A stretch of 64,000 bases of DNA from Escherichia coli (GTDB taxonomy: Bacteria > Pseudomonadota > Gammaproteobacteria > Enterobacterales > Enterobacteriaceae), in assembly GCF_003018235.1 (NCBI RefSeq), contig NZ_CP027437.1. One strand, written 5' to 3'. The notes below the pieces were generated by a model that was not told where the DNA came from, searched no databases, and saw only the letters and a list, made by a program, of their open reading frames with translations. Positions 5,468-47,982 of this stretch are shown here, piece by piece; the first letter of the stretch is position 1, and each line of letters opens with the position of its first letter. The position numbers were made by a program, and so were the translations under genes.

Positions 5468-5474
5468 GCCAGAA

Positions 5475-5495: not shown

Positions 5496-5514
5496 ACGCA
5501 ACAAGGAACGAGAT

Positions 5515-7108: not shown

Positions 7109-7117
7109 TAACGGGGA

Positions 7118-7143
7118 ACGCTAGCGCTGATATCCGCTAGCGT
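7118..7143. terminator. Bidirectional hairpin terminator between convergent frz-like operon and yicH
   Basis: Perfect 9-bp inverted repeat ACGCTAGCG / CGCTAGCGT with 8-nt loop, followed by T-rich tract. Confidence 0.45.
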
Positions 7144-7151
7144 CCTTATTT

Positions 7152-8861: not shown

Positions 8862-8949
8862 GGTCTTCCATCCCGTGAAATGCACATAAGGGAGTTATGC
8901 ACGATTTACGCGCAATCCTCAAGGCGGGAATGGTGAAAGAGGTGAGACT

Positions 8950-8974
8950 GCGGCGGTAATTATCTTACCGCCGC
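8950..8974. repeat. Perfect 10-bp inverted repeat (GCGGCGGTAA / TTACCGCCGC) downstream of xanP; REP-like or terminator stem
   Basis: Read from sequence; no clean U-tract on xanP strand. Confidence 0.35.
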
Positions 8975-8981
8975 CAGTGAA

Positions 8982-10373: not shown

Positions 10374-10651
10374 CGAAAACAATCCCGTGGTAGCAAAGCG
10401 GGCATTTTAGCTGACCGAAAGAGAAAAGCAAACGTTTGCCACATCCTCATCTAAATATTTAAATGAGATAAATGCACTTTTTTATATAACTTTTGGTATT
10501 TTTCTGCTTAAAATCCATGCCATTTGTTCATTAACAGCTGAGAATTTGACCCAGGAAAGCATAACTCGATACCCGTCATAGTTCATAAGTTGCCACTGCG
10601 CGATGAAGTATGACGAGTATGAAAGAGTGATGCGGATACAAAGGAGTAACT

Positions 10652-11857: not shown

Positions 11858-11859
11858 AA

Positions 11860-14792: not shown

Positions 14793-14797
14793 GGCAC

Positions 14798-15487
14798 TTA
14801 TCCTGCAGCCTGCATGGTAGCCCACCAGTCGGCATCAGCTTCGATCTCGCCTTGCTGATTGACGTGGGGGTAAGGCAGGCCTTTGCGTTTTGCGACTTTC
14901 GCCAGCACCGGATAGCCGCCTTCAAACAACAGGCGTTGTTGCTCTGCTTCCGGCAACATGCTGTTTTCACGCAGGTACATGCCCGCATTTTGCCGCTGGC
15001 GCTGGGCTTCGTAAAGAATGAGGGCTGAGGCAACGGAAACATTCAGCGATTGCACCATGCCAATCATCGGAATGATGATGTCCCGATCCGCCAGGGCCAA
15101 CGCTTCCTGCGTGATGCCTGTTTTCTCCTGTCCCATCAAAATACAGGTCGGGCGAGTGTAATCAATTTCGCGGAAATCGACAGCGTTATCAGAAAGATGG
15201 GTTGCAAGAATCTGCATGCCCTGGCCTTTCAGATGAGCGACGGCATCGCCAATGGTGCGGTGCGTTTTCACCTGTACCCAGCTGTTACTACCCGCAGCTG
15301 CCGAAGCCATGGTGCGCATCCGGCTGCCAGGCCAGACGGCATGAACTTCATGTACACCAACGGCATCTGCGGTACGAATAATCGCAGAAACGTTATGAGG
15401 TTTATGGACCTGCTCCATGCAGACGGTCAGATCAGGCTGCCGCCTGGTGAGCATTTCGCAGATGCGTGCATAACGTGTTGGGTTCAT
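14798..15487 (-). CDS. trmH: tRNA (guanosine18-2'-O)-methyltransferase
   Basis: 229 aa SpoU-family methyltransferase; spoT operon synteny. Confidence 0.9.
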   Translation of the reverse strand: MNPTRYARICEMLTRRQPDLTVCMEQVHKPHNVSAIIRTADAVGVHEVHAVWPGSRMRTMASAAAGSNSWVQVKTHRTIGDAVAHLKGQGMQILATHLSDNAVDFREIDYTRPTCILMGQEKTGITQEALALADRDIIIPMIGMVQSLNVSVASALILYEAQRQRQNAGMYLRENSMLPEAEQQRLLFEGGYPVLAKVAKRKGLPYPHVNQQGEIEADADWWATMQAAG

Positions 15488-15493
15488 AAAACA

Positions 15494-17602
15494 TTAATTT
15501 CGGTTTCGGGTGACTTTAATCACGTCTGGCATCACGCGGATTTTGCGCATGATATTCGCCAGATGCACACGGTCACGAGCGGTCAGACGAATAAAGGCGC
15601 TGTAGACGCGACCATCTTTCTCTTCCGTATTCAAACTTTGAATATTCGAGGTGGTGGTGTTAATTGCCGCCGTCAGGTTTGCCAGCGCACCCTGATGATT
15701 GAACATCTCCACCTTGATTTCGGTGATGAACTCCTGCGCCGTCTCTTTATCCCATTCCACAGCCATAAACTTCTCTGGCTCTTTCTGGTAGCCACGGATG
15801 TTACGGCAGGATTCATGGTGGATCACCAGACCTTTACCGGGGCTGACGTGGGCGATAATCGGGTCGCCAGGAATAGGGCGGCAGCATTTCGCAAAGGTGA
15901 TCAGCACGCCATCGGCACCTTTAATGGGCAGATGTCCGTGACTTTGGGTTGCCGGTGGAATGGAGGCGTCCCCATGTTGCAGATTTTTCGCGACCACCAC
16001 GCTCATTGCGTTACCAAGGCCGATTTCAGCCAGCAGATCGTCAAGCGTTGCCAGCTTCATGCGGTCCAGCTCGCGCTGAATATTTTCCTGCGGGATTTCA
16101 TTGAGCTTGCGGCTGCCACCCAACGCATGGTTGAGCAGACGACGGCCCAGGCTTACAGAATCATCACGCTTGAGGTTTTTCAGCAATTGACGAATTTTGG
16201 CGCGCGCTTTCGAGCTAACGACAAAGTTCAGCCACGCGGCATTCGGGCGAGCGCCAGGTGCGGTAATAATTTCAACGGTTTGACCGCTGGTAAGCGGCTG
16301 CGACAGCGGGTAAGGCTGGCGGTCGACGCGTGCGCCCACGCAGGCATGACCGATATCGGTATGCACCGCATAAGCGAAGTCGACGGGCGTTGCACCGGCA
16401 GGCAGCTCTACAATGCGCCCTTCCGGTGTGAAAACGTAAATTTCATCCGGGAAGAGATCGGATTTAACGCTCTCGATAAATTCAAACGAGCTACCGGCAC
16501 TCTGTTGCAGCTCCAGCAGGCTTTGCATCCAGCGCTGGGCGCGGATTTGTGCGGTAGTACTGGTTTCGCCGTGCTCTTTATAAGCCCAGTGCGCGGCAAC
16601 ACCCATCTCTGCCATCTGATCCATATCTTCGGTACGGATCTGGACCTCAACCGGCACGCCGTGCGGGCCAATCATCGAGGTGTGCAAAGACTGATAGCCG
16701 TTCGCTTTTGGAATGGCGATGTAGTCTTTCACGCGACCCGGACGCGGCTTGTACAGGCTATGCATTTGCCCGAGCACGCGATAACAGGTGTCGGAATCAT
16801 TGACGATCACGCGGAAGGCGTAGATGTCCATGATTGAGTGAAAACGCTGCTCTTTGAGCACCATTTTGCAGTAGATCGAATAAAGATGCTTTTCGCGACC
16901 ACTGACGCGGCACGGTATTCCCGCTTCCTGCAAACGCCCTTCGATTTCAGAAAGAATCTTCTGGATCATCTCTTTACGGTTGCCGCGCGCGGCTTTCACC
17001 ACTTCTTTAATTACGCGATAACGGTTGGGATACAGCGCCTCAAAACCCAGCTCTTCGAGTTCGGTTTTAATGTGGTGGATACCTAAACGGTGCGCCAGCG
17101 GGCTGTAAATTTCGAGTGTTTCACGGGCGATGCGGCGACGTTTGTCCGGGCGAAGTGAGCCCAGCGTGCGCATGTTGTGGGTACGGTCGGCAAGTTTGAT
17201 GAGAATGACGCGGATATCCTGCACCATCGCCATAATCATCTTGCGAAAGTTTTCGGCCTGCGCCTCTTTCTTATCGCGGAACTTGAGCTTATCAAGTTTC
17301 GACACCCCCTCTACCAGCTCGGCGACGCTTTTACCAAAAAGCTGTTCCATGTCCTGGTAGGTGGCGGGAGTATCTTCAATCACGTCATGCAGCAGTGCCG
17401 CCATTAGCGTTTCATAGTCGAGTTTCATCTCGGCCAGAATGCAGGCAACCGCCACCGGGTGCGTGATATAGGGTTCACCGCTTGAACGTGTTTGCCCCTC
17501 GTGAGCATCACGTGCAACGAGATACGCCTGCCGCAGACGCTTGATTTGGTCTTCCGGCAGGTAGGTTTGAATCAGTTGATTCAGGCTTTCAAACAGATAC
17601 AA
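15494..17602 (-). CDS. spoT: Bifunctional (p)ppGpp synthase/hydrolase SpoT
   Basis: 702 aa; HD domain, RelA/SpoT, TGS and ACT regions recognisable. Confidence 0.95.
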   Translation of the reverse strand: MYLFESLNQLIQTYLPEDQIKRLRQAYLVARDAHEGQTRSSGEPYITHPVAVACILAEMKLDYETLMAALLHDVIEDTPATYQDMEQLFGKSVAELVEGVSKLDKLKFRDKKEAQAENFRKMIMAMVQDIRVILIKLADRTHNMRTLGSLRPDKRRRIARETLEIYSPLAHRLGIHHIKTELEELGFEALYPNRYRVIKEVVKAARGNRKEMIQKILSEIEGRLQEAGIPCRVSGREKHLYSIYCKMVLKEQRFHSIMDIYAFRVIVNDSDTCYRVLGQMHSLYKPRPGRVKDYIAIPKANGYQSLHTSMIGPHGVPVEVQIRTEDMDQMAEMGVAAHWAYKEHGETSTTAQIRAQRWMQSLLELQQSAGSSFEFIESVKSDLFPDEIYVFTPEGRIVELPAGATPVDFAYAVHTDIGHACVGARVDRQPYPLSQPLTSGQTVEIITAPGARPNAAWLNFVVSSKARAKIRQLLKNLKRDDSVSLGRRLLNHALGGSRKLNEIPQENIQRELDRMKLATLDDLLAEIGLGNAMSVVVAKNLQHGDASIPPATQSHGHLPIKGADGVLITFAKCCRPIPGDPIIAHVSPGKGLVIHHESCRNIRGYQKEPEKFMAVEWDKETAQEFITEIKVEMFNHQGALANLTAAINTTTSNIQSLNTEEKDGRVYSAFIRLTARDRVHLANIMRKIRVMPDVIKVTRNRN

Positions 17603-29699: not shown

Positions 29700-31464
<1,765 letters not shown>

Positions 31465-31788
31465 AGTAAATAGCTGACTTATGGATGTGCTGGGGATTCT
31501 ATGTATTTAGCTGTGGCTTTACCATTACTTTTCCCGTTTTTGACTTAAATAGCAATTTACCCGCCAATTCTTGCTGAACATCTATACTTTTTTTGTATTT
31601 TTATGCGATTCATTGATTTCTGCAGTACGTGCAGGAAGGAATCGCAGAGCAACAGTGAAAGAATATGGTTGCTAATGATTTTATTTGATTGATTTCTTTA
31701 TTGAAAATCAACAATGTGCTTAAAAATCATTCGGGTCGGATTGCCGCGAAAGAAGTGATACACTAGCGCGTCAATATCAGTGCGGTAT

Positions 31789-31827
31789 CAGTATTCAGGT
31801 AGCTGTTGAGCCTGGGGCGGTAGCGTG
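31789..31827 (+). promoter_or_regulatory. JUMPStart sequence with ops element (GGCGGTAGCGTG at 31816-31827) in waaQ operon leader; RfaH antitermination site
   Basis: Exact match to the ops consensus GGCGGTAGnnTG, about 50 nt upstream of waaQ. Confidence 0.7.
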
Positions 31828-31876
31828 CTTTTTCTGCTTCACCTTAATCGGATAATCTCAACAAAAAGAGTTACTT

Positions 31877-32935
31877 GTGGATAAGCCATTTCGAAGAATT
31901 TTGCTCATTAAGATGCGTTTTCATGGGGATATGTTATTAACTACTCCCGTCATTAGTTCGCTGAAAAAAAATTACCCTGACGCAAAAATCGATGTGCTGC
32001 TTTATCAGGACACCATCCCGATCCTGTCTGAAAATCCAGAGATTAACGCGCTCTACGGCATAAAAAATAAAAAAGCAAAAGCCTCAGAAAAAATCGCCAA
32101 CTTTTTTCATCTCATCAAGGTATTACGTGCCAATAAGTATGACCTTATCGTCAATCTTACCGATCAATGGATGGTTGCTATACTGGTTCGCTTATTAAAT
32201 GCCCGTGTGAAAATTTCCCAGGATTATCATCATCGGCAGTCTGCTTTTTGGCGTAAAAGTTTCACCCATTTGGTGCCGTTGCAGGGTGGAAATGTGGTGG
32301 AAAGTAACTTATCCGTGCTGACACCATTGGGACTTGATTCGTTGGTGAAGCAGACAACCATGAGTTACCCGCCTGCAAGCTGGAAACGTATGCGTCGCGA
32401 ACTTGATCACGCTGGTGTTGGACAAAATTATGTGGTTATCCAACCTACGGCGCGGCAAATCTTCAAATGCTGGGACAACGCCAAGTTTTCCGCTGTGATT
32501 GATGCCTTACATGCTCGTGGTTATGAAGTCGTTCTGACGTCCGGCCCAGATAAAGACGATCTGGCCTGCGTCAATGAAATTGCGCAGGGATGCCAGACGC
32601 CACCAGTAACGGCGCTGGCCGGAAAGGTGACCTTCCCGGAACTTGGTGCGTTAATCGATCATGCGCAGCTGTTTATTGGCGTTGATTCCGCACCGGCGCA
32701 TATTGCCGCAGCAGTTAATACGCCGCTGATATCGCTGTTTGGTGCGACAGACCATATTTTCTGGCGTCCCTGGTCAAATAACATGATTCAATTCTGGGCG
32801 GGAGATTACCGGGAAATGCCAACGCGCGATCAGCGTGACCGAAATGAGATGTATCTTTCGGTTATTCCGGCGGCAGATGTCATTGCTGCTGTCGATAAAT
32901 TACTGCCCTCCTCCACGACAGGTACGTCGTTATGA
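31877..32935 (+). CDS. waaQ: LPS heptosyltransferase III
   Basis: GT9 heptosyltransferase; start ambiguous (GTG 31877, TTG 31901 or ATG 31913). Confidence 0.85.
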   Translation: MDKPFRRILLIKMRFHGDMLLTTPVISSLKKNYPDAKIDVLLYQDTIPILSENPEINALYGIKNKKAKASEKIANFFHLIKVLRANKYDLIVNLTDQWMVAILVRLLNARVKISQDYHHRQSAFWRKSFTHLVPLQGGNVVESNLSVLTPLGLDSLVKQTTMSYPPASWKRMRRELDHAGVGQNYVVIQPTARQIFKCWDNAKFSAVIDALHARGYEVVLTSGPDKDDLACVNEIAQGCQTPPVTALAGKVTFPELGALIDHAQLFIGVDSAPAHIAAAVNTPLISLFGATDHIFWRPWSNNMIQFWAGDYREMPTRDQRDRNEMYLSVIPAADVIAAVDKLLPSSTTGTSL

Positions 32936-34056
32936 TCGTTGCTTTTTGTTTATATAAATATTTTCCCTTTGGCGGTTTGCAGCGCGATTTTATGCGTATT
33001 GCTCAGACAGTCGCCGCCCGAGGTCATCATGTTCGGGTTTATACCCAGTCGTGGGAAGGCGAATGCCCTGATGTATTTGAACTGATCAAAGTGCCGGTTA
33101 AATCGCATACCAATCACGGGCGCAATGCGGAGTATTTTGCCTGGGTGCAAAAACATTTACGCGAACATCCCGTCGATAAAGTCGTTGGATTCAACAAAAT
33201 GCCGGGGCTGGACGTTTATTATGCCGCTGATGTTTGTTATGCCGAGAAAGTAGCGCAGGAGAAAGGCTTTTTCTATCGCCTGACGTCACGTTATCGCCAT
33301 TATGCCGCCTTTGAGCGGGCAACCTTCGAACAGGGTAAGCCGACACAGCTGCTGATGCTGACAGATAAGCAAATCGCCGATTTCCAGAAACATTATCAGA
33401 CTGAAGCGGAGCGTTTTCATATTCTGCCACCGGGGATTTACCCTGATCGTAAATATAGCCAGCAGCCAGCCAATAGCCGTGAAATCTTCCGTAAGAAGAA
33501 TGGAATAACCGAACAGCAATATTTATTGTTGCAGGTCGGTTCAGACTTCACGCGTAAAGGTGTCGATCGTTCCATTGAAGCACTTGCTTCGTTACCGGAT
33601 TCGCTGCGCCACAACACATTGCTATATGTTGTTGGGCAGGATAAACCGCGAAAATTTGAGGCGCTGGCAGAAAAACGCGGCGTGCGCAGTAATGTTCACT
33701 TCTTCTCGGGGCGCAACGATGTCTCGGAATTAATGGCGGCGGCGGATTTATTACTGCATCCTGCCTACCAGGAAGCGGCGGGAATTGTGCTGCTGGAAGC
33801 GATTACTGCAGGATTACCGGTACTAACAACAGCCGTTTGTGGCTATGCGCCTTATATTGTCGAGGCCAATTGCGGCGAGGCTATTGCTGAGCCATTCCGC
33901 CAGGAAACATTGAATGAGATTTTACGCAAAGCGTTAACGCAATTTTCATTGCGCCAGGCCTGGGCGGAAAATGCGCGACATTATGCTGATACACAAGATT
34001 TATACAGTCTGCCAGAGAAAGCGGCGGACATCATAACGGGTGGTCTGGATGGTTGA
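32932..34056 (+). CDS. waaG: LPS glucosyltransferase I (GT4)
   Basis: 374 aa [20 protein letters not shown]. Confidence 0.95.
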
Positions 34057-34846
34057 ACTTAAAGAGCCGTTTGCCACGTTATGGCGCGGAAAAGATCCTT
34101 TTGAGGAAGTTAAAACTTTGCAGGGTGAGGTATTTCGTGAACTGGAAACTCGCCGTACTCTACGCTTTGAAATGGCGGGCAAAAGCTATTTTCTCAAATG
34201 GCATCGCGGCACGACCCTGAAAGAGATAATCAAAAATTTACTCTCATTGCGGATGCCAGTATTAGGCGCAGACCGCGAATGGAATGCGATTCATCGACTG
34301 CGGGATGTCGGCGTTGATACTATGTATGGGGTGGCATTCGGCGAAAAAGGCATTAATCCGCTCACCAGAACCTCGTTTATTATAACCGAAGATCTGACAC
34401 CAACCATCAGTCTGGAAGATTACTGTGCTGACTGGGCGACTAACCCACCAGATGTTCGCGTAAAGCGTATGCTTATTAAGCGTGTCGCGACGATGGTGCG
34501 CGATATGCATGCTGCGGGCATTAACCACCGTGACTGTTATATCTGTCATTTCCTGCTGCACTTGCCTTTTTCCGGTAAGGAAGAGGAGTTAAAAATTTCG
34601 GTAATTGACCTGCACCGGGCGCAGCTTCGCACGCGCGTTCCACGTCGTTGGCGCGATAAAGATCTTATAGGGCTTTATTTTTCTTCGATGAATATTGGCC
34701 TGACTCAGCGGGATATCTGGCGGTTTATGAAAGTGTATTTTGTCGCCCCGCTTAAAGACATTCTCAAGCAGGAACAAGGGCTGCTGTCGCAAGCAGAAGC
34801 AAAAGCCACAAAAATCAGGGAAAGAACGATTAGAAAATCGTTGTAA
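34049..34846 (+). CDS. waaP: LPS core heptose(I) kinase
   Basis: 265 aa from [20 protein letters not shown]. Confidence 0.9.
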
Positions 34847-34888
34847 CCCGTAACTTATTTTTGCCAAAATTTTGGATACAGAATAAAT

Positions 34889-35896
34889 ATGTCTCAACTC
34901 AATGATAGTGACATCATCCTTTTTGAGTATAACTTTCATTATCAAAATATAAGATCTAAAAATACTCTTGATATCGCATTTGGTATTGACAGAAATTTTC
35001 TTTTTGGATGTGGTGTAGCCATCGCATCTATTCTATTAAACAATAGCGAAATCTCTTGTGAATTTCATGTTTTCACAGATTATATCAGTGATAAAGACAA
35101 GTTATATTTTTCCGATTTAGCAAAACAATATAATTCAAGAATTAATATTTATGTAATCAATTGTGATAAACTGAAGTCATTACCAAGCACGAAAAACTGG
35201 ACTTACGCAACATATTTTCGATTTATAATTGCAGATTATTTCTATCATAAACATGAAAAAATACTATATCTTGATGCAGATATTGCTTGCAAGGGTAGTA
35301 TTAAAGAACTCTTAGATTATCAATTTTCTCCTAATGAAATTGCCGCAGTTGTAGCTGAAAGAGATGTTGAATGGTGGCAAAATCGAGCCTCGGTATTAAC
35401 TACACCACAGTTAGCTTCTGGATATTTCAATGCTGGTTTTTTACTGATAAATATTGATGAGTGGAATCTAAATAACATTTCGTCAAAAGCTATTGAAATG
35501 TTGCGTGATCCAGATTGGGTAAGTAAAATTACCCACCTTGATCAAGATGTACTGAATGTATTATTGAATGGTAAAGTGAAGTTTATTTCGGGGAAATATA
35601 ATACCCGATATAGTATTAACTACGAATTAAAAGACAAAGTTGATAATCCAGTCAATGATGACACCGTGTTTATACACTATGTGGGACCTACAAAACCCTG
35701 GCATGAGTGGGCTGATTATCCGGTGTCACGTAGTTTTTTGATCGCCAAGGCAGCTTCTCCGTGGAGTAAAGAAGATTTACTTAAACCTGTAAATAGCAAT
35801 CAGTATCGGTATTGTGCAAAACATAAATTTAAACAAAAGCATTATATGGCAGGCATTTTTAATTATTTAAAGTATTATAAAGAAAAATGTTTCTAA
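34889..35896 (+). CDS. waaI: LPS outer-core alpha-1,3-hexosyltransferase (GT8)
   Basis: 335 aa; GT8 motifs (YLDADI, HY.G..KPW); low GC; symbol assumes R3-type order. Confidence 0.65.
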   Translation: MSQLNDSDIILFEYNFHYQNIRSKNTLDIAFGIDRNFLFGCGVAIASILLNNSEISCEFHVFTDYISDKDKLYFSDLAKQYNSRINIYVINCDKLKSLPSTKNWTYATYFRFIIADYFYHKHEKILYLDADIACKGSIKELLDYQFSPNEIAAVVAERDVEWWQNRASVLTTPQLASGYFNAGFLLINIDEWNLNNISSKAIEMLRDPDWVSKITHLDQDVLNVLLNGKVKFISGKYNTRYSINYELKDKVDNPVNDDTVFIHYVGPTKPWHEWADYPVSRSFLIAKAASPWSKEDLLKPVNSNQYRYCAKHKFKQKHYMAGIFNYLKYYKEKCF

Positions 35897-35921
35897 AGAT
35901 TTAAGGTTAAAATAATTCATT

Positions 35922-36629
35922 ATGATATATAATAAAACGATAAACGGATTGAAAGTTTTCATAAAAGATAATGATCCCTTTTATGAGCAAGTTCTGAATG
36001 ACTTTTTAACTTGCAGGGTTAAAACATTAAAAGTTTTTCGTTCTATTGATGATACTAAAGTCATTCTTATTGACACTGCTCGTGGACCTCTTGTACTTAA
36101 AGTTTATGCGCCAAAGCATAAAATGATCGAACGTTTCTTAAAATCTTGCATAAAAAAAGATTATTATGAAAATTTAATTTATCAAACCGATCGGGTACGT
36201 GGTGAAGGCGTTCAATCAATTAATGACTATTTTTTGCTTGCTGAACGTAAAACATTAAATTTCGCGCATTATTATATTATGCTCATTGAGTATATTGAAG
36301 GTGTCGGGTTAAATGAGTATTTGGAAATTTCTGAAGATCTGAAGGATCAATTATCAGAATCGATAAAAGAGCTGCATCAGCATGGAATGGTGTCTGGCGA
36401 TCCTCATAAAGGAAATTTTATAGTATCCGAAAAAGGTTTAAGACTAATTGACCTTTCAGGTAAAAAAACAACCGCTGTTTTAAAAGCAAAAGATCGCATT
36501 GATCTTGAACGGCACTATAATATAAAAAATGAATTGAAAGACTTTGGCTATACATATCTTATATTCAAAAAGAAAATTAAAAAAGTAATCAGGGATGTAA
36601 AAGTCAAACTAGGATTGAAGAGCAAATAA
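35922..36629 (+). CDS. waaY: LPS core heptose(II) kinase
   Basis: 235 aa WaaY/Kdo-kinase-like protein between two GT8 genes. Confidence 0.75.
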   Translation: MIYNKTINGLKVFIKDNDPFYEQVLNDFLTCRVKTLKVFRSIDDTKVILIDTARGPLVLKVYAPKHKMIERFLKSCIKKDYYENLIYQTDRVRGEGVQSINDYFLLAERKTLNFAHYYIMLIEYIEGVGLNEYLEISEDLKDQLSESIKELHQHGMVSGDPHKGNFIVSEKGLRLIDLSGKKTTAVLKAKDRIDLERHYNIKNELKDFGYTYLIFKKKIKKVIRDVKVKLGLKSK

Positions 36630-36653
36630 TGATTATGATGAAGGGTAATTAAA

Positions 36654-37667
36654 TTGGATTTTAAACATCTTACTCAATTTAAAGATATAATTGAACTGGA
36701 CAAGCGCCCTGTTAAACTTGATGAACGGGAAACGTTTAATGTCTCATGGGGTATTGATGAGAACTACCAGGTAGGGGCTGCGATTTCAATTGCTTCAATT
36801 CTTGAAAATAATAAACAAAACAAATTTACCTTTCACATAATCGCTGATTACTTAGACAAAGAGTATATTGAATTATTATCACAATTAGCAACGAAGTATC
36901 AAACAGTAATTAAATTATATCATATTGATTCTGAGCCATTGAAGGCGCTACCTCAATCAAATATCTGGCCAGTATCTATTTATTATCGTTTGCTTTCATT
37001 TGATTATTTTTCTGCGCGATTGGATTCATTATTATATCTTGATGCTGATATCGTCTGTAAGGGTTCATTGAACGAGTTAATAGCATTAGAGTTTAAAGAT
37101 GAATATGGGGCTGTGGTAATTGATGTAGATGCTATGCAAAGTAAAAGCGCTGAGCGTTTATGTAATGAGGATTTTAACGGTAGCTATTTTAACTCTGGTG
37201 TAATGTATATTAATTTACGGGAATGGTTACAACAAAGACTAACGGAGAAATTCTTTGATCTATTATCAGATGAGTCAATTATCAAAAAATTAAAGTATCC
37301 GGATCAAGATATTTTAAACTTAATGTTTTTACATCATGCTAAAATATTACCGAGAAAATATAATTGTATTTATACTATAAAGTCAGAATTTGAAGAAAAA
37401 AATAGTGAATATTACACCCAGTTTATTAATGATGAAACTGTCTTCATACATTATACTGGTGTAACTAAGCCATGGCATGATTGGGCGGACTACGCATCTG
37501 CAGATTATTTCCGTAATATTTATAATATATCTCCATGGAGAAATATACCTTATAAAAAAGCTGTTAAAAAACATGAGTACAAAGAAAAATATAAACACTT
37601 GCTTTACCAGAAAAAATTTCTCGATGGTGTTTTTACAGCAATTAAATATAATGTTATGAAAGGTTAA
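36654..37667 (+). CDS. waaJ: LPS outer-core alpha-1,2-glycosyltransferase (GT8)
   Basis: 337 aa; GT8 motifs; paralog of preceding GT8. Confidence 0.65.
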   Translation: MDFKHLTQFKDIIELDKRPVKLDERETFNVSWGIDENYQVGAAISIASILENNKQNKFTFHIIADYLDKEYIELLSQLATKYQTVIKLYHIDSEPLKALPQSNIWPVSIYYRLLSFDYFSARLDSLLYLDADIVCKGSLNELIALEFKDEYGAVVIDVDAMQSKSAERLCNEDFNGSYFNSGVMYINLREWLQQRLTEKFFDLLSDESIIKKLKYPDQDILNLMFLHHAKILPRKYNCIYTIKSEFEEKNSEYYTQFINDETVFIHYTGVTKPWHDWADYASADYFRNIYNISPWRNIPYKKAVKKHEYKEKYKHLLYQKKFLDGVFTAIKYNVMKG

Positions 37668-37675
37668 TACTCGAG

Positions 37676-38818
37676 ATGGTTGATAAAATAATATTTACAG
37701 TCACTCCTATTTTTTCAATTCCTCCTCGCGGAGCGGCCGCTGTTGAAACGTGGATGTATCAGGTTGCTCAGCGTACCAATTTCCCAAATCGTATTGTTTG
37801 TATCAAGAATCCAGGATACTCAAATTACACCTTTGTTAATGATAATTGTAGTATTCATAGGGTTGGATTCAGTCGCATATATAAGCGGTTATTTCAAAAA
37901 TGGACAAGACTTGATCCTCTTCCATATTCACAGAGAATATTGAATATTGCCCATGATTTTCCTATAACGAAAGAAAGTGTTATTGTAGTTCATAATAGCA
38001 TGAAACTATACACTCAAATTCGTAAGCGAGCTCCTCAGGCAAGAGTGGTTATTCATATGCATAATGCATTTGAACCAAAATTGCTTGAGCAAAATGTTAA
38101 AATGATAGTGCCTAGTTTATACTTGAAAAAGTATTACCAATCTTATTTAGCAAATGCAGATATTGAGATTGTACCAAATGGAATTGATTTAGAAACCTAT
38201 CAATCTACTTTTCAGCCGATCACTAGAAGCGAACTTAATATCTCCCCTGAAGAGAAAATTATTTTTTATGCTGGGCGTATCGTCCCTGATAAAGGCATAT
38301 TACTGTTGATGCAATCATTCGAAAAATTGGCCGCTGCTCACAAAAATTTAAAATTAGTTGTGATTGGTGATTATACAGAAATGAGTAAAAGTGACAAAGG
38401 TGCATATCAACGCAATGTCAGGGAAATTGCAAAACGTTTGAAGGATCGTTGCATTATGTTAGGAAGCATACCGCCTGAAAATATGCATTGTTATTACCCA
38501 CTGGCGGATTTAGTCGTCATTCCTTCCCAGTTCCAGGAACCATTTTGCATGGTGGCAATTGAAGCTATGGGGGCTGGTAAGCCTGTTTTAGTGAGTACGC
38601 GTGGGGGGATGACGGAATTTGTCAAAGAAAATACTACGGGATTCCATTTAAAAGAACCTATGACTGCAGACTCCATAAGCAGCGATATTTTAAAAACGTT
38701 AGCGAATCCTGAATTAACAGCAGTTGCAAAGCAAGGTCAGGATTTTGTGTTTGATCACTACAGTTGGGATGGCGTAACTCAAAGATTTGAAGAGGTTATT
38801 CATAATTGGTTTGAATAA
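37676..38818 (+). CDS. waaD: LPS outer-core glycosyltransferase (GT4; WaaD/WaaK-like)
   Basis: 380 aa; GT4 C-terminal EX7E-type region; last gene before waaL; symbol tentative. Confidence 0.55.
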   Translation: MVDKIIFTVTPIFSIPPRGAAAVETWMYQVAQRTNFPNRIVCIKNPGYSNYTFVNDNCSIHRVGFSRIYKRLFQKWTRLDPLPYSQRILNIAHDFPITKESVIVVHNSMKLYTQIRKRAPQARVVIHMHNAFEPKLLEQNVKMIVPSLYLKKYYQSYLANADIEIVPNGIDLETYQSTFQPITRSELNISPEEKIIFYAGRIVPDKGILLLMQSFEKLAAAHKNLKLVVIGDYTEMSKSDKGAYQRNVREIAKRLKDRCIMLGSIPPENMHCYYPLADLVVIPSQFQEPFCMVAIEAMGAGKPVLVSTRGGMTEFVKENTTGFHLKEPMTADSISSDILKTLANPELTAVAKQGQDFVFDHYSWDGVTQRFEEVIHNWFE

Positions 38819-38825
38819 ATAAAAA

Positions 38826-38848
38826 GGCCGCATTATGCAGCCTTTTTA
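38826..38848. terminator. Bidirectional terminator between convergent waaD-like gene and waaL
   Basis: A5-GGCCGCA...TGCAGCC-T5 hairpin (one mismatch) flanked by A and T runs. Confidence 0.45.
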
Positions 38849-38852
38849 TTTT

Positions 38853-40061
38853 TTACTTGTTTTTCATCGCTAATAATAAGCCGGCGTAAACACCTAATAA
38901 ATTTGGTTCAATTTGTTCTACGTTTCCACGGATAACAAAATAACCTATAAAAGATAGTAAGATTATATAATATGCATTATATGGTGAGCGGTATTTATTC
39001 TGGACGCCATTTTTTATACACTCTTTCAATATTGCACAGTATAGCATCATAAGACTTACCAGCCCTAATAAACCAGTGCCAAACCAGATGAATAGCGCAA
39101 AATTATGTGGCCCTATTGATTGTCTAAAGGTCCATTCTGGATAATCAACGACACGTTTATTATAGACATCTTTATATGCAACGTTACCGTAACCATAACC
39201 AATAACAGGATTCTCTAATATTAGATCGAGTGCGCTGCCTTGAGTACCATTTGCATAGCGATAAGAACTATTAGTTTGTTGAAGTTTATACGTTAGCTTT
39301 GCGGTCATCTCCTTATGTGTGAAAATAACCGACAATGCAATGATGGAAACCATTACTCCTACTAATAGTAACTTCCATTGTTTAAACATCAGAATCCATA
39401 TTAATCCAATGACTAACACGGAAAGCCAGGCCCCTCTGGATAAAGTTCCTAATATCAGAAAAATAAAAATAAAGCTTAGAACCACAAAAGAAATGCGGTA
39501 TTTTGCTGATTTGATAAGCCAGAGATTTAACAATGCAGGGAATAAAAAGACCATCGAGTCAGAAATGCTACGGTGTCTATAATCTGCGAATGGCATTATC
39601 CCTTGTTGATAGTCCTTATAATAGGCAATCAATTCAGAAAAACAGCGTAAGCCCAACGCACTAATAAATGAGAAGAAAACGATTTTTTCGACATCTTCTC
39701 TTTTCTCGTCTCTCAATATGACTGGTATTGCTATTGTGCATAGTAAAGTATTCTCAATAATAGCTTTGAAAATTTCCTTCATGCTAGCCCCTGCATCAGG
39801 GGATTGAAGAAGTGACAGCAATGCAGCAATAGTTAATATGGCAACACTACCAAAAAGAAATGTTTTAAATAGTGAGAGATAATGTTTTGGCCGTTTGCAG
39901 AGATAGACGATTGTCGTTATTGTCATAAGAATAACGATAAGATGTTTATACCTTGTAATCCCACCCAAAAAATAGGTGGTAATGAATAAGAATACGAGAG
40001 CTCTGTTCCAGTACGCTATCCAGTTTTTTTTCTCGAGAGAGAAAAATAATGTTGAGGTCAT
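38853..40061 (-). CDS. waaL: O-antigen ligase
   Basis: 402 aa polytopic membrane protein in the conserved waaL position; start overlaps waaC stop (ATGA). Confidence 0.8.
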   Translation of the reverse strand: MTSTLFFSLEKKNWIAYWNRALVFLFITTYFLGGITRYKHLIVILMTITTIVYLCKRPKHYLSLFKTFLFGSVAILTIAALLSLLQSPDAGASMKEIFKAIIENTLLCTIAIPVILRDEKREDVEKIVFFSFISALGLRCFSELIAYYKDYQQGIMPFADYRHRSISDSMVFLFPALLNLWLIKSAKYRISFVVLSFIFIFLILGTLSRGAWLSVLVIGLIWILMFKQWKLLLVGVMVSIIALSVIFTHKEMTAKLTYKLQQTNSSYRYANGTQGSALDLILENPVIGYGYGNVAYKDVYNKRVVDYPEWTFRQSIGPHNFALFIWFGTGLLGLVSLMMLYCAILKECIKNGVQNKYRSPYNAYYIILLSFIGYFVIRGNVEQIEPNLLGVYAGLLLAMKNK

Positions 40062-41050
40062 CTTATCTCCGATGTCAACTTATTGGTTATTATTTCAAGA
40101 TTTAAATTTTGAAAAACGGTTTGAGCTGGCAAATCTGCAAGAGACATACTTGTAGAACGACACTCTACTTGATTCTTCCCATACCCACCAATTAATCCAG
40201 GATCGGTTGGTCCATAAACCGTGATATTGGGTCTATCCAGTGCCGCCGTTAAATGGCTTAACCCCGTATCCACCGACACTACAAATTTAGCCCCGGCCAG
40301 CACGCGGGCAACGCCTTCCAGACTCATCTTCGGCAATACTTCAACATAAGCAAATCCTTCCGCCAGTCGTTTCGCCCGTTCTTCCTCATGCGGCGCGCCC
40401 CACGGAAGTTTAATCCGTATTCCTGAATCAGCCAGTAAACCAATCAATTCTCGCCAGTGTTCTTCCGGCCAGTGTTTATCATCTCGGGTTGTTGCATGAA
40501 GAAATACGGCATATTCGCCAGCATCTGTAGGCAGGTTCGTCAGGAAATGCTGTGCGATAGCATAATCGCCCTGGGTTTGTGGTTTGCTATAGCCCAGACT
40601 TTTGGCAAACAGTTCGCGGGTGCGTTCTACGGCGTGCTGCTGTTTTGCAATATGATGCTTACGATTGTAAAACAGGCTGGCTAAAGGTTCGCGAGCGGTT
40701 TGCCAGTCCATTCCATGCTTTACGCCATGCGCCAGACGCGTCACCAGCGCCGCGCTTTTTACCAGCCCCTGAGCGTCGATAACTGCGTCATAGTTCTCTG
40801 CTTGTAGCGCTTCACGAAACGCTTTCCGTTCAGCTTTTATGGGGGCCGAGAACCAGGCTTTACGCCAGCGACGTATTGCCACAGGAATAACTCGCTCAAC
40901 AGCGGCGTGCCAGGAAGGAATTTGTGCGAACCCTTCTTCCACCACCCAGTCAAACTTAATCCCCGGGATTGCCTGCTGGGCATCAGTGAGTGCGGGCAAC
41001 GTATGGAGAACATCGCCCATCGACGATGTTTTAACGATCAAAACCCGCAT
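40058..41050 (-). CDS. waaC: LPS heptosyltransferase I
   Basis: 330 aa MRVLIVKTSSMGDVLHTLPALTDA; C-terminal ~30 aa appear to differ from the K-12 protein as remembered. Confidence 0.9.
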   Translation of the reverse strand: MRVLIVKTSSMGDVLHTLPALTDAQQAIPGIKFDWVVEEGFAQIPSWHAAVERVIPVAIRRWRKAWFSAPIKAERKAFREALQAENYDAVIDAQGLVKSAALVTRLAHGVKHGMDWQTAREPLASLFYNRKHHIAKQQHAVERTRELFAKSLGYSKPQTQGDYAIAQHFLTNLPTDAGEYAVFLHATTRDDKHWPEEHWRELIGLLADSGIRIKLPWGAPHEEERAKRLAEGFAYVEVLPKMSLEGVARVLAGAKFVVSVDTGLSHLTAALDRPNITVYGPTDPGLIGGYGKNQVECRSTSMSLADLPAQTVFQNLNLEIITNKLTSEIR

Positions 41051-41053
41051 CCG

Positions 41054-42100
41054 TCAGGCTTCCTCTTGTAACAATAGCGCGTTAAGTTCTTCCAGTACGC
41101 GCTGGGGAGTAATGTCGATCAAGCTCTGGTGATAACCCTCCGCAGCGTCACCTTTACGCACTTTGTGATAGCCGGTAATCAGGCGGATCACGCGTGCTTT
41201 ATGGGATAGCGGCGGTGTGAAGTCCGGGCTACTCGGACCATACAAGGCAACCAGCGGACGATTGAGCGCCGCCGCAACGTGCATCAGGCCAGAATCGTTA
41301 GTGACAATGGCTTTACAGGCTGTAATCAGGATAACCGCTTGATCAAGCTGTGTTTCCCCTGCCAGGTTCCGGCACCATGCCTGCTGCTCGGTATTTAAAG
41401 CGGCAAGAATCTCATTGCCCGCTTCATGATCTTTCGCCGAGCCAAACAGAACCACCTGATAACCTTCATCAATCAGCTGCTTTGCCAGCTCCGCATAGTG
41501 GTAGTGTGGCCAGCGTTTTGCCGGACCAAACTCCGCACCCGGGCAAAAGCCAATCATCGGACGTTCTGATGAAAGCGAAAATTGATTACAGGTATATGAT
41601 TTTTCACCTTCGCTCACCTGCAACTGCGGCCATAACAATGGCTGCGGCAGATCTTGTGCTGTACGCATAATGCCTTTGTCATAGGCCAGCGCGACATAGC
41701 GTTCCACCATTAGCGGCCAGGCTTCTTTATCGAGCACGCGTACATCGTTAAGTAAACCGTAGCGCATCTCGCCGCGCCAGCCGGTGCGATGAGGAATACC
41801 CGCGAAGAAAGGCACTAATGCGGATTTGAAGGAGTTGGGTAAGACGTAGGCGCGGTCGTAGCGCTTTTCACGCAGACTATGACCCAGTTTGCGGCGTTCG
41901 CCGATTTCCAGCGCTCCGTGACCGAGAGGCATAGGAATAGCTTCGTTAACTTCCGGCATCCGCGATAATAATGGACGGCACCATGCCGGTGCCATCACGT
42001 CGATTATCGCCTGGGGATAGCGCGCCTGGAGCGTGCGATAGAGACTTTGCGACATCATCATGTCGCCAACCCAAGACGGGCCGATCACCAGTATTTTCAT
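41054..42100 (-). CDS. waaF: LPS heptosyltransferase II
   Basis: 348 aa MKILVIGPSWVGDMMMSQSLYRTL. Confidence 0.9.
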   Translation of the reverse strand: MKILVIGPSWVGDMMMSQSLYRTLQARYPQAIIDVMAPAWCRPLLSRMPEVNEAIPMPLGHGALEIGERRKLGHSLREKRYDRAYVLPNSFKSALVPFFAGIPHRTGWRGEMRYGLLNDVRVLDKEAWPLMVERYVALAYDKGIMRTAQDLPQPLLWPQLQVSEGEKSYTCNQFSLSSERPMIGFCPGAEFGPAKRWPHYHYAELAKQLIDEGYQVVLFGSAKDHEAGNEILAALNTEQQAWCRNLAGETQLDQAVILITACKAIVTNDSGLMHVAAALNRPLVALYGPSSPDFTPPLSHKARVIRLITGYHKVRKGDAAEGYHQSLIDITPQRVLEELNALLLQEEA

Positions 42101-42109
42101 GCAGAGCTC

Positions 42110-43042
42110 TTATGCGTCGCGATTCAGCCAGGCCATGTATTCCGTTACACCTTCAGCAACGGTTTTGAACGGTTTATCGTAACCCGCCGCGCGCAGATTC
42201 GTCAGATCTGCCTGAGTGAACGCCTGGTAGCGGCCTTTCAGTTTATCCGGGAACGGAATGTATTCGATCTGGCCTTTCTTGTGATAAGCCAGCGTAGCAT
42301 CGGCTACCGCCTGGAAGGATTCCGCACGACCGGTGCCGAGGTTGAAGATGCCGGAAACGCCATTTTCCAGGAACCACAGGTTTACATCTGCCACGTCGCC
42401 TACGTAAACGAAGTCGCGTTTGAAGTTCTCGCTACCTTCAAACAGCTTCGGCGATTCACCGTTGTTAAGCTGAGTGTTGAGATGGAAAGCGACGCTCGCC
42501 ATGCTGCCTTTATGGCCTTCACGCGGTCCATAAACGTTGAAATAGCGGAAGCCAACAATCTGCGAGTTCGCTTCTGGCAGGATTTGACGAACATATTCAT
42601 CAAACAGGAATTTTGAGTAACCGTAGACGTTCAACGGTTTTTCGTACTCGCGGGATTCAATAAAGTCGGAGGTGCGACCGCCGTAAGTGGCCGCGGAAGA
42701 GGCATACAGGAACGGGATTTCGCGTTCCAGACAGTAGTGCAGCAGCTCTTTGGAGTATTGATAGTTGTTATCCATCATATACTTGCCATCCCACTCGGTG
42801 GTGGAAGAGCATGCGCCTTCGTGGAAAATCGCTTCGACATCACCGAACTCTTCGCCAGCCATAATCTGGATCAGGAAGTCTTCCTTATCCATATAGTCCG
42901 CGATATCCAGATCCACCAGGTTCACAAACTTGGTGCCGTCTTTCAGGTTGTCCACCACCAGAATATCGGTGATGCCTTTATCATTCAGGGCCTTAACGAT
43001 GTTGCTGCCGATAAAGCCCGCGCCGCCGGTAACGATGATCAT
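42110..43042 (-). CDS. hldD: ADP-L-glycero-D-manno-heptose 6-epimerase
   Basis: 310 aa [23 protein letters not shown] (Rossmann). Confidence 0.95.
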
Positions 43043-43345
43043 AACTGTAACCTTCGAATTATGGAGTCAGAGACAATCTCAGACACGAATGTCTGTAATC
43101 ATACCATCACATCCGAATCCCTTCAGCCCTTTACATAGAGGTGCAAGGATGCTAATTGCAACAAACTAGTTTGGGTTTTAGCTAGTCCTTCATGGCGGAT
43201 GTTGGTTTTGTATGTGAATAGTGCTTTAGTATCAATATTCCGATGTATGATAAATAACGGAAGCATTTGAATGGATAATATACAGTATACATTCTGTTAA
43301 TATTTATGATATAATTCTTTTTTTATATTAATGGTCTTATTAGTA

Positions 43346-44203
43346 ATGAAATCATCCACCACAATTATCACTGCATATTTTGACATTGGTAGAGGGGATT
43401 GGACTGCTAATAAAGGGTTCCGTGAAAAACTAGCTCGTTCAGTTGATGTTTATTTTAGTTACTTTGAGCGTCTGGCCGCACTTGAAAATGAGATGATTAT
43501 TTTCACTTCTCCCGATTTGAAACCAAGGGTTGAAGCGATTCGCAACGGAAAACCAACAACGGTTATCGTTATCGATATAAAAAAGAAATTTAGATATATC
43601 AGAAGTCGTATCGAAAAAATTCAAAAAGATGAGTCGTTTACAAATAGACTTGAGCCTCGACAATTAAAAAACCCAGAGTACTGGTCACCAGAGTATGTTT
43701 TGGTATGTAACCTTAAGGCCTATTTTGTAAATAAAGCTATCAACATGGGCTTAGTGAAAACTCCTCTTGTTGCGTGGATAGATTTTGGCTATTGCCGTAA
43801 GCCAAATGTAACTCGAGGATTGAAAATTTGGGATTTCCCATTTGATGAAAATAAGATGCATCTTTTCACTATAAAAAAAGGGCTTACTGTCACATCTCAA
43901 CAACAGGCTTTTGATTTCATGATTGGCAATCATGTATATATTATTGGTGGCGCAATTGTTGGTTCACAGCATAAATGGAAAGAATTCTATAAATTAGTTC
44001 TGGAAAGTCAAAAAATAACCCTAAACAATAACATTGTGGACGATGACCAGGGCATCTTTGTCATGTGCTATTACAAACGTTCCGATCTCTTCAACCTAAA
44101 CTATCTGGGGAGAGGAAAATGGTTCGATTTGTTTCGCTGCTTCAGGAGTAACACTTTAGGGGCAAAAATGCAGGCGCTGAGAATTTTCCTTTCAAGAAAA
44201 TAG
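43346..44203 (+). CDS. htrL: HtrL/YibB-family protein
   Basis: 285 aa from MKSSTTIITAYFDIGRGDW; low-GC gene. Confidence 0.8.
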   Translation: MKSSTTIITAYFDIGRGDWTANKGFREKLARSVDVYFSYFERLAALENEMIIFTSPDLKPRVEAIRNGKPTTVIVIDIKKKFRYIRSRIEKIQKDESFTNRLEPRQLKNPEYWSPEYVLVCNLKAYFVNKAINMGLVKTPLVAWIDFGYCRKPNVTRGLKIWDFPFDENKMHLFTIKKGLTVTSQQQAFDFMIGNHVYIIGGAIVGSQHKWKEFYKLVLESQKITLNNNIVDDDQGIFVMCYYKRSDLFNLNYLGRGKWFDLFRCFRSNTLGAKMQALRIFLSRK

Positions 44204-44250
44204 GTTTCCCTCCATTAGTGGGTAGCGTTTTGATACCAAATGAGATTGGA

Positions 44251-44277
44251 AAAATGATGCTCTGGCATCATTTTTTC
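44251..44277 (+). terminator. Rho-independent terminator after htrL
   Basis: AAAATGATGC-TCTG-GCATCATTTT hairpin followed by T-run. Confidence 0.5.
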
Positions 44278-44477
44278 TTTTTATATCAATGCAGTAAAAT
44301 CACTCATCATTATGCCCAGCCAAAACTGTACAGTTTTTCTACTATCTATAGGTGTTGAGAGACATCAAGATTCACGTTATTTATCCTGAATTTTGCAGAA
44401 GTGTTAACGCGTCATCTCGTCGCGACCTATAAGTTTGGGTAATATGTGCTGGAATTTGCCCTGTCTGGAGAATCGCA

Positions 44478-45674
44478 ATGCGTGGAGAATTTTATCAGCA
44501 GTTAACCAACGATCTGGAAACCGCACGGGCGGAAGGGTTGTTTAAAGAAGAGCGCATTATTACGTCTGCGCAGCAAGCAGATATCACTGTGGCTGATGGA
44601 AGCCACGTCATTAACTTTTGTGCCAATAACTATCTCGGACTGGCGAATCATCCGGATCTGATTGCGGCGGCAAAGGCGGGAATGGATTCTCACGGTTTCG
44701 GCATGGCTTCGGTGCGTTTTATTTGCGGCACTCAGGACAGCCATAAAGAGCTTGAACAAAAACTGGCGGCCTTCCTGGGGATGGAAGATGCGATTCTCTA
44801 CTCTTCCTGCTTTGATGCTAACGGTGGCCTGTTCGAAACGCTGTTAGGCGCGGAAGACGCCATTATCTCCGACGCACTGAACCACGCGTCTATTATTGAT
44901 GGTGTGCGTCTGTGCAAAGCTAAACGCTATCGTTATGCCAACAACGATATGCAGGAGCTGGAAGCACGTCTGAAAGAAGCGCGTGAAGCCGGTGCGCGTC
45001 ATGTGCTGATTGCCACCGATGGTGTGTTCTCGATGGACGGCGTGATTGCCAACCTGAAAGGTGTTTGCGATCTCGCAGATAAATATGATGCCCTGGTGAT
45101 GGTAGATGACTCACACGCGGTAGGTTTTGTCGGTGAAAACGGTCGTGGTTCCCATGAATACTGCGATGTGATGGGCCGGGTCGATATTATCACCGGCACG
45201 CTCGGTAAAGCGCTGGGCGGGGCTTCTGGTGGTTATACCGCGGCGCGCAAAGAAGTGGTTGAGTGGCTGCGCCAGCGTTCTCGTCCGTACCTGTTCTCCA
45301 ACTCGCTGGCACCGGCCATTGTTGCCGCTTCCATCAAAGTGCTGGAGATGGTTGAAGCGGGTAGCGAGCTGCGTGACCGTCTGTGGGCGAACGCGCGTCA
45401 GTTCCGTGAGCAAATGTCGGCGGCGGGCTTTACCCTGGCGGGAGCCGATCACGCCATTATTCCGGTCATGCTTGGCGATGCGGTAGTAGCGCAGAAATTT
45501 GCTCGTGAGCTGCAAAAAGAGGGGATTTACGTCACCGGTTTCTTCTATCCGGTCGTTCCGAAAGGTCAGGCGCGTATTCGTACCCAGATGTCTGCGGCGC
45601 ATACCCCTGAGCAAATTACGCGTGCAGTAGAAGCATTCACGCGTATTGGTAAACAACTGGGCGTTATCGCCTGA
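44478..45674 (+). CDS. kbl: 2-amino-3-ketobutyrate CoA ligase (glycine C-acetyltransferase)
   Basis: 398 aa; PLP-dependent enzyme. Confidence 0.95.
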
Positions 45675-46947: not shown

Positions 46948-47982
46948 ATGATGAACAGCACCAATAAACTTAGTGTTATTATTCCGTTATATAATGCGGG
47001 TGATGATTTCCGCACTTGTATGGAATCTTTAATTACGCAAACCTGGACTGCTCTGGAAATCATTATTATTAACGATGGTTCAACGGATAATTCTGTTGAA
47101 ATAGCAAAGCATTACGCAGAAAACTATCCGCACGTTCGTTTGTTGCATCAGGCGAATGCTGGCGCATCGGTAGCGCGTAATCGTGGGATCGAGGTGGCGA
47201 CGGGCAAATATGTCGCTTTTGTCGATGCTGACGATGAGGTCTATCCCACCATGTACGAAACGCTGATGACCATGGCGTTAGAGGACGACCTCGACGTGGC
47301 GCAGTGCAACGCTGACTGGTGTTTTCGTGAAACGGGAGAAACCTGGCAATCCATCCCCAGCGATCGCCTTCGCTCAACCGGCGTATTAACCGGCCCGGAC
47401 TGGCTGCGAATGGGGCTTTCTTCCCGCCGTTGGACTCATGTTGTCTGGATGGGCATTTATCGTCGCGATGTCATTGTTAAAAATAACATTAAATTTATTG
47501 CCGGATTACATCATCAGGATATTGTCTGGACAACAGAATTTATGTTTAACGCGCTACGTGCGCGATATACCGAGCAATCGTTATATAAATATTATCTGCA
47601 TAATACGTCAGTAAGTCGCTTGAATAGACAGGGAAATAAAAACCTTAATTATCAACGCCACTATATTAAGATTACCCGACTGCTAGAGAAATTAAATCGA
47701 AATTATGCCGACAAAATTACGATTTATCCGGAATTTCATCAGCAAATAACTTACGAAGCATTGCGTGTTTGCCATGCGGTGCGCAAAGAGCCGGATATTA
47801 TTACCCGCCAACGGATGATTGCCGAGATATTTACTTCTGGTATGTATAAGCGCCTGATTACCAATGTGCGCAGCGTGAAGGTGGGTTATCAGGCGTTACT
47901 GTGGTCTTTCCGCTTATGGCAATGGCGCGACAAAACGCGGTCGCACCATCGCATTACGCGTAGCGCCTTTAATTTACGCTAG
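46948..47982 (+). CDS. waaH: GT2-family glycosyltransferase WaaH (YibD)
   Basis: 344 aa; [11 protein letters not shown] and VDADDE GT2 motifs. Confidence 0.85.

Follow-up and report, generated by a model that had tools for sequence, protein, structure and literature searches.

A chromosomal waa locus assigned to the R3 lipopolysaccharide core genotype in a 64-kb stretch of Escherichia coli DNA

Results

Layout of the waa locus

The subject of this study is the waa (rfa) locus in a 64,000-nucleotide (nt) stretch of Escherichia coli DNA (contig NZ_CP027437.1; hereafter the window, with positions counted from its first base), and above all the AT-rich part of that locus that carries the lipopolysaccharide (LPS) outer-core genes waaI, waaY, waaJ, waaD and waaL. 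An earlier note on this DNA had drawn the segment from 34889 to 40061, had counted four genes between waaP and waaL, in the order GT8, WaaY-like kinase, GT8, GT4 (GT, glycosyltransferase family), and had proposed the R3 core type (waaI-waaY-waaJ-waaD). Borders and order were both found to be exact with respect to the genes: 34889 is the ATG of waaI, 40061 is the first base of the minus-strand start codon of waaL, and the open reading frames agree with the NCBIfam and Pfam models on the four genes.

An entire E. coli-type waa region lies in the window. In it, coaD is followed by waaA (30187-31464, minus strand), which an AT-rich leader of 412 nt separates from waaQ. The latter, a heptosyltransferase III gene (31877-32935, plus strand), is the first gene of a long operon and belongs to the R1/R3/R4 class of alleles. 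It is followed on the same strand by waaG (32932-34056), whose product adds the outer-core glucose I and is 98.9-99.2% identical in amino acid (aa) sequence to those of the R1/R3/R4 loci and 88-90% to those of K-12/R2, and by the heptose I kinase gene waaP (starting at 34049 or 34040 and ending at 34846; NF011703 (RfaP), 480.8 bits, above its curated cut-off). Next come waaI (alias waaO; 34889-35896, plus strand), which encodes a GT8 alpha-1,3-galactosyltransferase of 335 aa (NF011718, 617 bits against a cut-off of 461), and waaY (35922-36629, plus strand), whose 235-aa product is a heptose II kinase by its match to NF007684 (RfaY; 388.5 bits against a cut-off of 248). WaaY also aligns to positions 1-229 of the 229 in PF06176 (310 bits), and its kinase role is predicted from this family membership. 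The second GT8 gene, waaJ (36654-37667, plus strand; 337 aa), starts with TTG and has an AAGGG ribosome-binding site upstream. Both GT8 proteins carry PF01501 and PF08437, at 248.8 and 75.4 bits in WaaI and 214 and 48.5 bits in WaaJ, above the Pfam gathering scores. The last gene of the operon, waaD (37676-38818, plus strand), encodes a GT4 transferase of 380 aa (NF012028, 767 bits against a cut-off of 618; PF00534).

The R3-type O-antigen ligase gene waaL (38853-40061, minus strand; 402 aa) lies opposite, its product matching NF012031 (RfaL) at 690 bits against a cut-off of 277 and PF04932 (Wzy_C) at 75.9 bits. It is the last gene of a hldD-waaF-waaC-waaL operon that is convergent to the waaQ operon and is made up, on the minus strand, of hldD (42110-43042), waaF (41054-42100), the heptosyltransferase I gene waaC (40058-41050; RfaC model, likewise above its cut-off) and waaL itself; waaC and waaL overlap in an ATGA stop/start. 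The successive gaps from waaP to waaL measure 42, 25, 24, 8 and 34 nt, so exactly four genes lie between these two and there is no space for another.

The gene set of the R3 core type

We compared the segment with a reference set of 5426 complete E. coli genomes. Its 5173 bases match 1363 of these (about a quarter) over the full length, each time as a single chromosomal copy. Many O157:H7 strains share 98.5% DNA identity with it over the full segment, and the O157:H7 annotation lists identical genes in identical order. The remaining genomes were sorted into classes with a waaY probe (in sensitive mode), one locus was fetched for each class (K-12, R2, R1 and R4), and the window proteins were compared with all reference loci by BLASTP.

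Taken as a set, the five proteins are 98.5-99.5% identical to those of O157, as against 35-58% to their K-12, R1, R2 and R4 counterparts. WaaI is 99.1% identical to its O157 equivalent (58% at the best non-R3 locus), WaaY 98.7% (52-58% in the other types), WaaJ 98.5% (at best 44% outside R3, with WaaR/WaaT at 40-44%) and WaaD 99.5% (at best 57%, to R2 WaaK). WaaL is 98.5% identical to the O157 ligase, and its sole non-R3 match is that of R2 at 51.5%, with zero BLASTP match to the K-12, R1 or R4 ligases. The WaaQ protein, outside the segment, is 100% identical to those of the O157 and R1 loci and 73% to those of K-12/R2.

Typing primers gave the same picture. The published R3 pair (PMC13293308) anneals with 0 mismatches, R3-R at 36738-36760 in waaJ and R3-F at 37739-37758 in waaD, and the in-silico polymerase chain reaction (PCR) product, 36738-37758, is 1021 bp long, equal to the published size; the R1, R2, R4 and K-12 typing primers have no site in the window at up to 3 mismatches. 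In tblastn searches of the whole 64 kb (E<=1e-3), K-12 WaaS, WaaB, WaaZ and WaaU, R4 WaaX, and the K-12, R1 and R4 WaaL proteins were not found. R1 WaaV had waaH as its sole match there, at 32% identity, with no waaV homologue in the waa locus, and the type-specific genes waaK, waaT and waaW are likewise absent from the window by tblastn, with at most paralogous GT8, GT4 or GT2 similarity. Membership of the K-12, R1, R2 or R4 type thus fails on type-specific genes, ligase and typing amplicon alike.

The locus equals the R3 waa locus known from the prototype F653, from O157:H7 and from Shigella flexneri 2a in its genes and in their order, orientation, lengths and junctions, and across 15.2 kb it is 98.4% identical in DNA to an O157:H7 chromosome, with the same R3 typing amplicon. 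O157:H7 is itself documented as an R3-core strain (PMC13293308, PMC9927288, bioRxiv 10.1101/536201), and no sequence feature contradicting an R3 genotype was found in the window. With high confidence, we therefore assign this chromosomal waa (rfa) locus to an E. coli-group strain of R3 core genotype. The R3 call of the earlier note and its statement that waaB, waaS and waaZ are missing both hold, and the BLASTP comparison that it had proposed places the best matches with R3 and none with R1, R4 or K-12.

Boundaries and base composition of the type-specific block

Breakpoints were determined against the R1, R4 and K-12 loci. R1 and R4 share 98.9-99.1% identity with the window as far as 34846, where the stop codon of waaP ends; the match picks up again at 40167-40170, within waaC and about 110 nt from its 3' end. 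The type-specific block is thus 34847-40169 (5.3 kb) and takes in the final ~36 codons of waaC. In an alignment the C-terminal tail of WaaC differs in every core type, and the one in the window (residues ~295-330) is R3-specific. The end that the earlier note gave to the segment, 40061, is right for the start of waaL but falls short of the end of this block. To the left of the block, the waaQGP alleles form two classes, R1/R3/R4 and K-12/R2, the latter at 73-90% aa identity.

The block has a GC content of 33.3%, compared with a mean of 52.2% (standard deviation 2.0, minimum 46.2%) for equally long windows from the rest of the 64 kb (z ~ -9.6); its flanks have 48-52%, and GC at third codon positions is 25-34% in the five block genes and 46-63% in waaC, waaF, hldD and kbl. 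The marked AT-richness remarked on earlier is therefore real. Yet the central regions of the K-12, R1, R2, R4 and O157 R3 loci all have a GC content of 33-35%, and related Citrobacter and Enterobacter loci have ~40%. Since low GC is common to all five core types and to these other genera, it is by itself no proof of recent import or replacement; it is an old, shared property of outer-core genes and does not distinguish R3. The low G+C of the central region and its horizontal transfer via homologous recombination have both been published (PMC8715443).

Mosaic identity and exchange of the block

The closest complete genome, strain Z1323HEC0462, was compared with the window from 29889 to 45061. 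From waaI through waaD the two differ by 0-2 mismatches per gene: waaI, waaY and a nearby island holding yibB are 100% identical, and waaJ, waaD and waaL are 99.4-99.9% identical. The high-GC genes waaA, waaG, waaC, waaF and hldD are 98.1-98.8% identical, with waaG, waaC, waaF and hldD differing by 1.2-1.9%. The histories of the AT-rich accessory pieces and of the core genes hence differ. Such a mosaic would be the expected outcome of homologous recombination of the cassette or of its flanks, and lends support to it. Horizontal exchange is thus supported by the sharp homology breakpoints and the mosaic sharing of alleles, and not by GC; the earlier proposal of horizontal replacement survives as to the exchange and fails as to the use of low GC as evidence for it. 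The 5.3-kb AT-rich block is one of five alternative E. coli cassettes at this site, and lineages would trade these cassettes through homologous recombination within the conserved sequence on either side.

A different account of the same block would make it foreign DNA that the source strain acquired recently from a donor of low GC, and not an alternative allele long resident in the species. The contrast between 33% GC inside and 52% around the block, its sharp borders, and the complete identity of waaI and waaY with Z1323HEC0462 while the flanks differ by 1-2% could all be read in this way. Nevertheless, all five core types have a similarly low GC at the same position, the divergence of the cassette from O157 (1.1-1.6%) is about that of the flanks (0.5-3.3%), no insertion sequence, phage or integrase remnant is present, and the mosaic points to recombination within the species. 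We consider a recent import very unlikely.

A rare allele of the R3 cassette

Among the 1363 R3 carriers, just 5 have a cassette at least 99% identical to that of the window. Relative to the O157 allele, the five cassette genes contain 72 nt differences, which translate into ~19 aa differences, with no indels in coding sequence; this low number of replacements is consistent with purifying selection on intact, functional genes. Over the flanks (21-25 kb), the closest of the 5426 complete E. coli genomes reach no more than 98.5-98.7% identity. An identity of 100% to the window is seen in two draft assemblies, over 7.2 kb in GCA_024600115.1 and over 5.6 kb in GCA_012128275.1, and the exact WaaL of the window occurs on many contigs of public assemblies, always in the same gene order. 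The low flank identity, together with the rare cassette allele, indicates that the source lineage is poorly represented among finished genomes.

Shigella flexneri as the source was considered and gained no support: of the 6 sites of the deletion primers published for S. flexneri 2457T (PMC3184986), 3 have mismatches in the window, and the primer sequences fit the O157 allele perfectly. The allele that these primers imply is thus not the one in the window.

The rarity of the allele raises the idea of a variant or hybrid core, in which the ~19 substitutions would alter acceptor or donor specificity, such that a different core is made. In favor of this idea, besides the few close carriers, are the 6 substitutions in WaaL and the 5 in WaaJ relative to O157, and the annotation by PGAP of the WaaJ of the closest genome merely as 'glycosyltransferase'. 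Against it, the proteins keep their 98.5-99.5% identity to O157 over their full lengths, reading frames are free of indels, most of the differences are synonymous, the R3 primers match exactly, and the same WaaL recurs on public contigs in an unchanged gene order. We consider such a variant or hybrid core very unlikely.

Comparison with the other E. coli core types

The K-12 reference locus has the order waaQGPSB-O-J-Y-Z-U, with waaL convergent. The R2 locus, of the Salmonella type, reads waaQGPSBORYZK, with waaL convergent after waaC as in the window, and for the distal genes R2 is the nearest other E. coli type (through WaaK, 57% identical to WaaD, and WaaL, 51.5%). Unlike the window, R2 carries a waaS-like gene, waaB and waaZ, has waaY after the second GT8 gene and a waaK-type GT4 gene in the place of waaU, and its waaQGP belongs to the other allele class (73-88% aa identity).

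The R1 locus is arranged as waaQGP-O-T-Y-W-GT2(V)-L, all on one strand, and R4 is the same with a GT25 gene (X) replacing the GT2 gene. Both resemble the window in waaA-waaQGP and in waaC-waaF-hldD (98-99% DNA identity), with the same breakpoints. They differ from it in carrying three GT8 genes and, in addition, one of the GT2 or GT25 family, a plus-strand waaL at the end of the waaQ operon, and a WaaL with no detectable similarity to that of R3. There is next to no chance that the locus is a K-12, R1, R2, R4 or Salmonella-type core, a reading that can draw only on the shared GT8 and WaaY families and the likeness of WaaD to R2 WaaK, and that is already refuted by non-R3 identities of 35-58% at best, by the absence of waaB, waaS, waaZ, waaU, waaK, waaT, waaW, waaV and waaX, by the failure of the other types' primers, and by a different number and order of genes.

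R3-like cassettes in Citrobacter and Enterobacter

A scan for relatives with the WaaL of the window, which covered one genome per species and used exact peptide words, so that it detects close relatives only, returned three loci: those of a cryptic Escherichia sp. (95% identity), Citrobacter freundii M-21 (66%) and Enterobacter sp. Ag1 (65%). R3-like cassettes lie at 7009-15584 of the C. freundii M-21 locus (L010) and at 7010-15592 of the Enterobacter sp. Ag1 locus (L011). Their layout is that of the window, with hldD-waaF-waaC-waaL convergent with waaQ-G-P-GT8-GT8-GT4 and yibB adjacent, and their WaaI, WaaJ and WaaD are 71-76% and their WaaL 64-66% identical to the window's, closer than those of the other E. 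coli types. They differ from the window in having no waaY between the GT8 genes and in their GC content (~40% vs 33%). In an alignment, the WaaC tail of C. freundii M-21 resembles the R3 tail.

According to a published statement, homologues of the central region are confined to Escherichia and Shigella (PMC8715443); the cassettes found here qualify it. Nothing relevant emerged when the literature was searched for reports connecting Citrobacter with R3. We judge it about as probable as its opposite that the R3 cassette shares ancestry with the syntenic waaI-waaJ-waaD/waaL cassette of C. freundii and Enterobacter, from which it would differ mainly by waaY. The comparison, which is a lead only given its minimal sampling, suggests that R3 may be the E. 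coli form of an older, Enterobacteriaceae-wide cassette and not an import of unknown origin.

Leader and terminator of the waaQ operon

The 5' leader of the waaQ operon contains a JUMPstart RNA element with its ops sequence (GGCGGTAGCGTG; 31789-31827, plus strand), which matches the full Rfam model RF01707 at 55.2 bits against a gathering score of 35. Its distance to waaQ is 50 nt, and the ops element itself occupies 31816-31827. In operons with JUMPstart and ops, RfaH is recruited at the ops sequence and then keeps RNA polymerase transcribing along the operon, which is long and AT-rich here. The presence of both predicts that the waaQ operon is RfaH-dependent.

At the other end, folding revealed a hairpin between the convergent waaD and waaL (38817-38851), flanked by runs of A and T and so placed as to act as a bidirectional terminator. 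Its folding energy is -16 kcal/mol on the plus strand and -20.2 kcal/mol on the minus strand (z of -4.7 and -7.0). A consensus terminator scan had missed this hairpin because of a 1x1 mismatch in its stem. The sole indel relative to O157:H7 in 15 kb, one T extra or missing, falls in the T-run of this terminator, at 38842.

As a side observation, the ops-core octamer (GGCGGTAG) occurs 7 times in the window, as compared with 1.36 expected from shuffles, none of which reached 7. The copies are at 4299, 20916, 24474, 26742, 31816, 42304 and 57947, and only that at 31816 stands in a JUMPstart context; the excess probably reflects oligonucleotide or codon bias.

Neighboring features in the window

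A second low-GC island (43091-44373, GC 36%) holds yibB/htrL (43331-44203, plus strand; Pfam HtrL_YibB). The island is a presence/absence polymorphism, being found in 1958 of the 5426 complete E. coli genomes; yibB is present in the K-12, O157, Citrobacter and Enterobacter loci, and the reference loci of R1, R2 and R4 lack it cleanly. We dropped a supposed linkage of yibB to the R3 and K-12 types, as the counts (1958 genomes with yibB, 1363 of R3 and 1033 of K-12 type) follow no simple rule.

Just past tdh lies waaH (yibD; 46948-47982, plus strand), which encodes a GT2 UDP-glucuronate:LPS(HepIII) glycosyltransferase and lies in a stretch that is mildly low in GC. Its role in R3 strains has been reported as unclear, because heptose III (HepIII) carries N-acetylglucosamine (GlcNAc) there (bioRxiv 10.1101/536201).

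Near the start of the window, where GC is ~40%, a sugar-utilization cluster (~165-7110, plus strand) comprises a BglG-family antiterminator, fructose-type IIA, IIB and IIC components of a phosphotransferase system, two aldolases, a ROK protein and a lyxose/mannose-type isomerase. This cluster is variable content, with 1602 of the 5426 genomes covering at least 80% of the first 25 kb. At the far end, a large gene for a YadA-like trimeric autotransporter adhesin (~59900-64000, minus strand) extends past the window. Its matches are fragmented, in up to 11 places per genome, which marks it as repetitive and variable.

Discussion

The genes described above allow a scheme of core assembly to be proposed, in which the individual enzyme activities and the sugar structure follow what has been published for O157:H7, F653 and S. 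flexneri. The long operon waaQ-G-P-I-Y-J-D would be read from a promoter upstream of the JUMPstart/ops leader, which would load the anti-terminator RfaH, and its transcription would stop at the bidirectional hairpin. WaaG would add glucose I (Glc I) to the heptose region, and WaaI would add an alpha-1,3-galactose (HexII) to Glc I, in keeping with its described function as the HexII galactosyltransferase (PMC9927288, PMC3184986). WaaJ would then add an alpha-1,2-glucose (HexIII), the residue that receives the O antigen, and WaaD would cap this glucose with another, terminal alpha-1,2-glucose; the HexIII-directed steps of both enzymes have been described (PMC9927288, PMC3899070, PMC3184986). Going by their family names, WaaP would phosphorylate heptose I and WaaY heptose II. 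Finally WaaL, translationally coupled to waaC, would join the undecaprenyl-linked O antigen to the finished core.

Several caveats attach to the R3 assignment. The R3 core structure of the source strain is a prediction from genotype. Moreover, the allele in the window is a minority R3 variant, about 1.5% diverged from the dominant allele of 1358 of the 1363 carriers. Literature and databases also conflict over the donor of WaaD, glucose or GlcNAc, and the sequence cannot decide between them: WaaD is an alpha-1,2-glucosyltransferase according to two sources (PMC3899070, PMC9927288) and is drawn as a GlcNAc transferase in a third (PMC3184986), and its NCBIfam/PGAP name, 'lipopolysaccharide N-acetylglucosaminyltransferase', implies a UDP-GlcNAc donor. 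That name arises from the subfamily that WaaD shares with the WaaK of R2 and Salmonella. Lastly, the complete O157:H7 R3 structure needs plasmid-borne wabB and a further GlcNAc transferase, accessory genes outside the locus. According to bioRxiv 10.1101/536201, citing Kaniuk et al. 2004, the full O157 R3 core has a GlcNAc on HepIII that is added by the plasmid-encoded WabB, and the transferase for the GlcNAc on the outer-core galactose is described there as unknown. The conclusions of Kaniuk et al. 2004 (J Biol Chem 279:31237) are given here as relayed by PMC3899070, PMC9927288 and the bioRxiv paper. Through its place in the WaaK subfamily, WaaD is a formal candidate for this outer-core GlcNAc addition, a separate proposal to which we give equal measures of belief and doubt.

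Taken together, these results describe an ordinary, textbook R3 waa locus, of which the gene order, function, distribution, low G+C and presumed mode of exchange are already known. The R3 call is useful for typing the source strain and adds nothing new to the biology; the points that are mildly new are limited to the exact breakpoints at this locus, the rarity of its allele, and the finding that Citrobacter and Enterobacter have R3-like cassettes. Core type sets which O antigens can be ligated, as well as recognition by phages and antibodies (e.g., core-directed monoclonals), and it correlates with pathotype, R3 being predominant in enterohaemorrhagic E. coli (EHEC) and in strains positive for the locus of enterocyte effacement (LEE) (PMC8715443, PMC13293308). 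As for the family at large, the R3-like cassettes of Citrobacter and Enterobacter bear modestly on the origin of the E. coli core cassettes.

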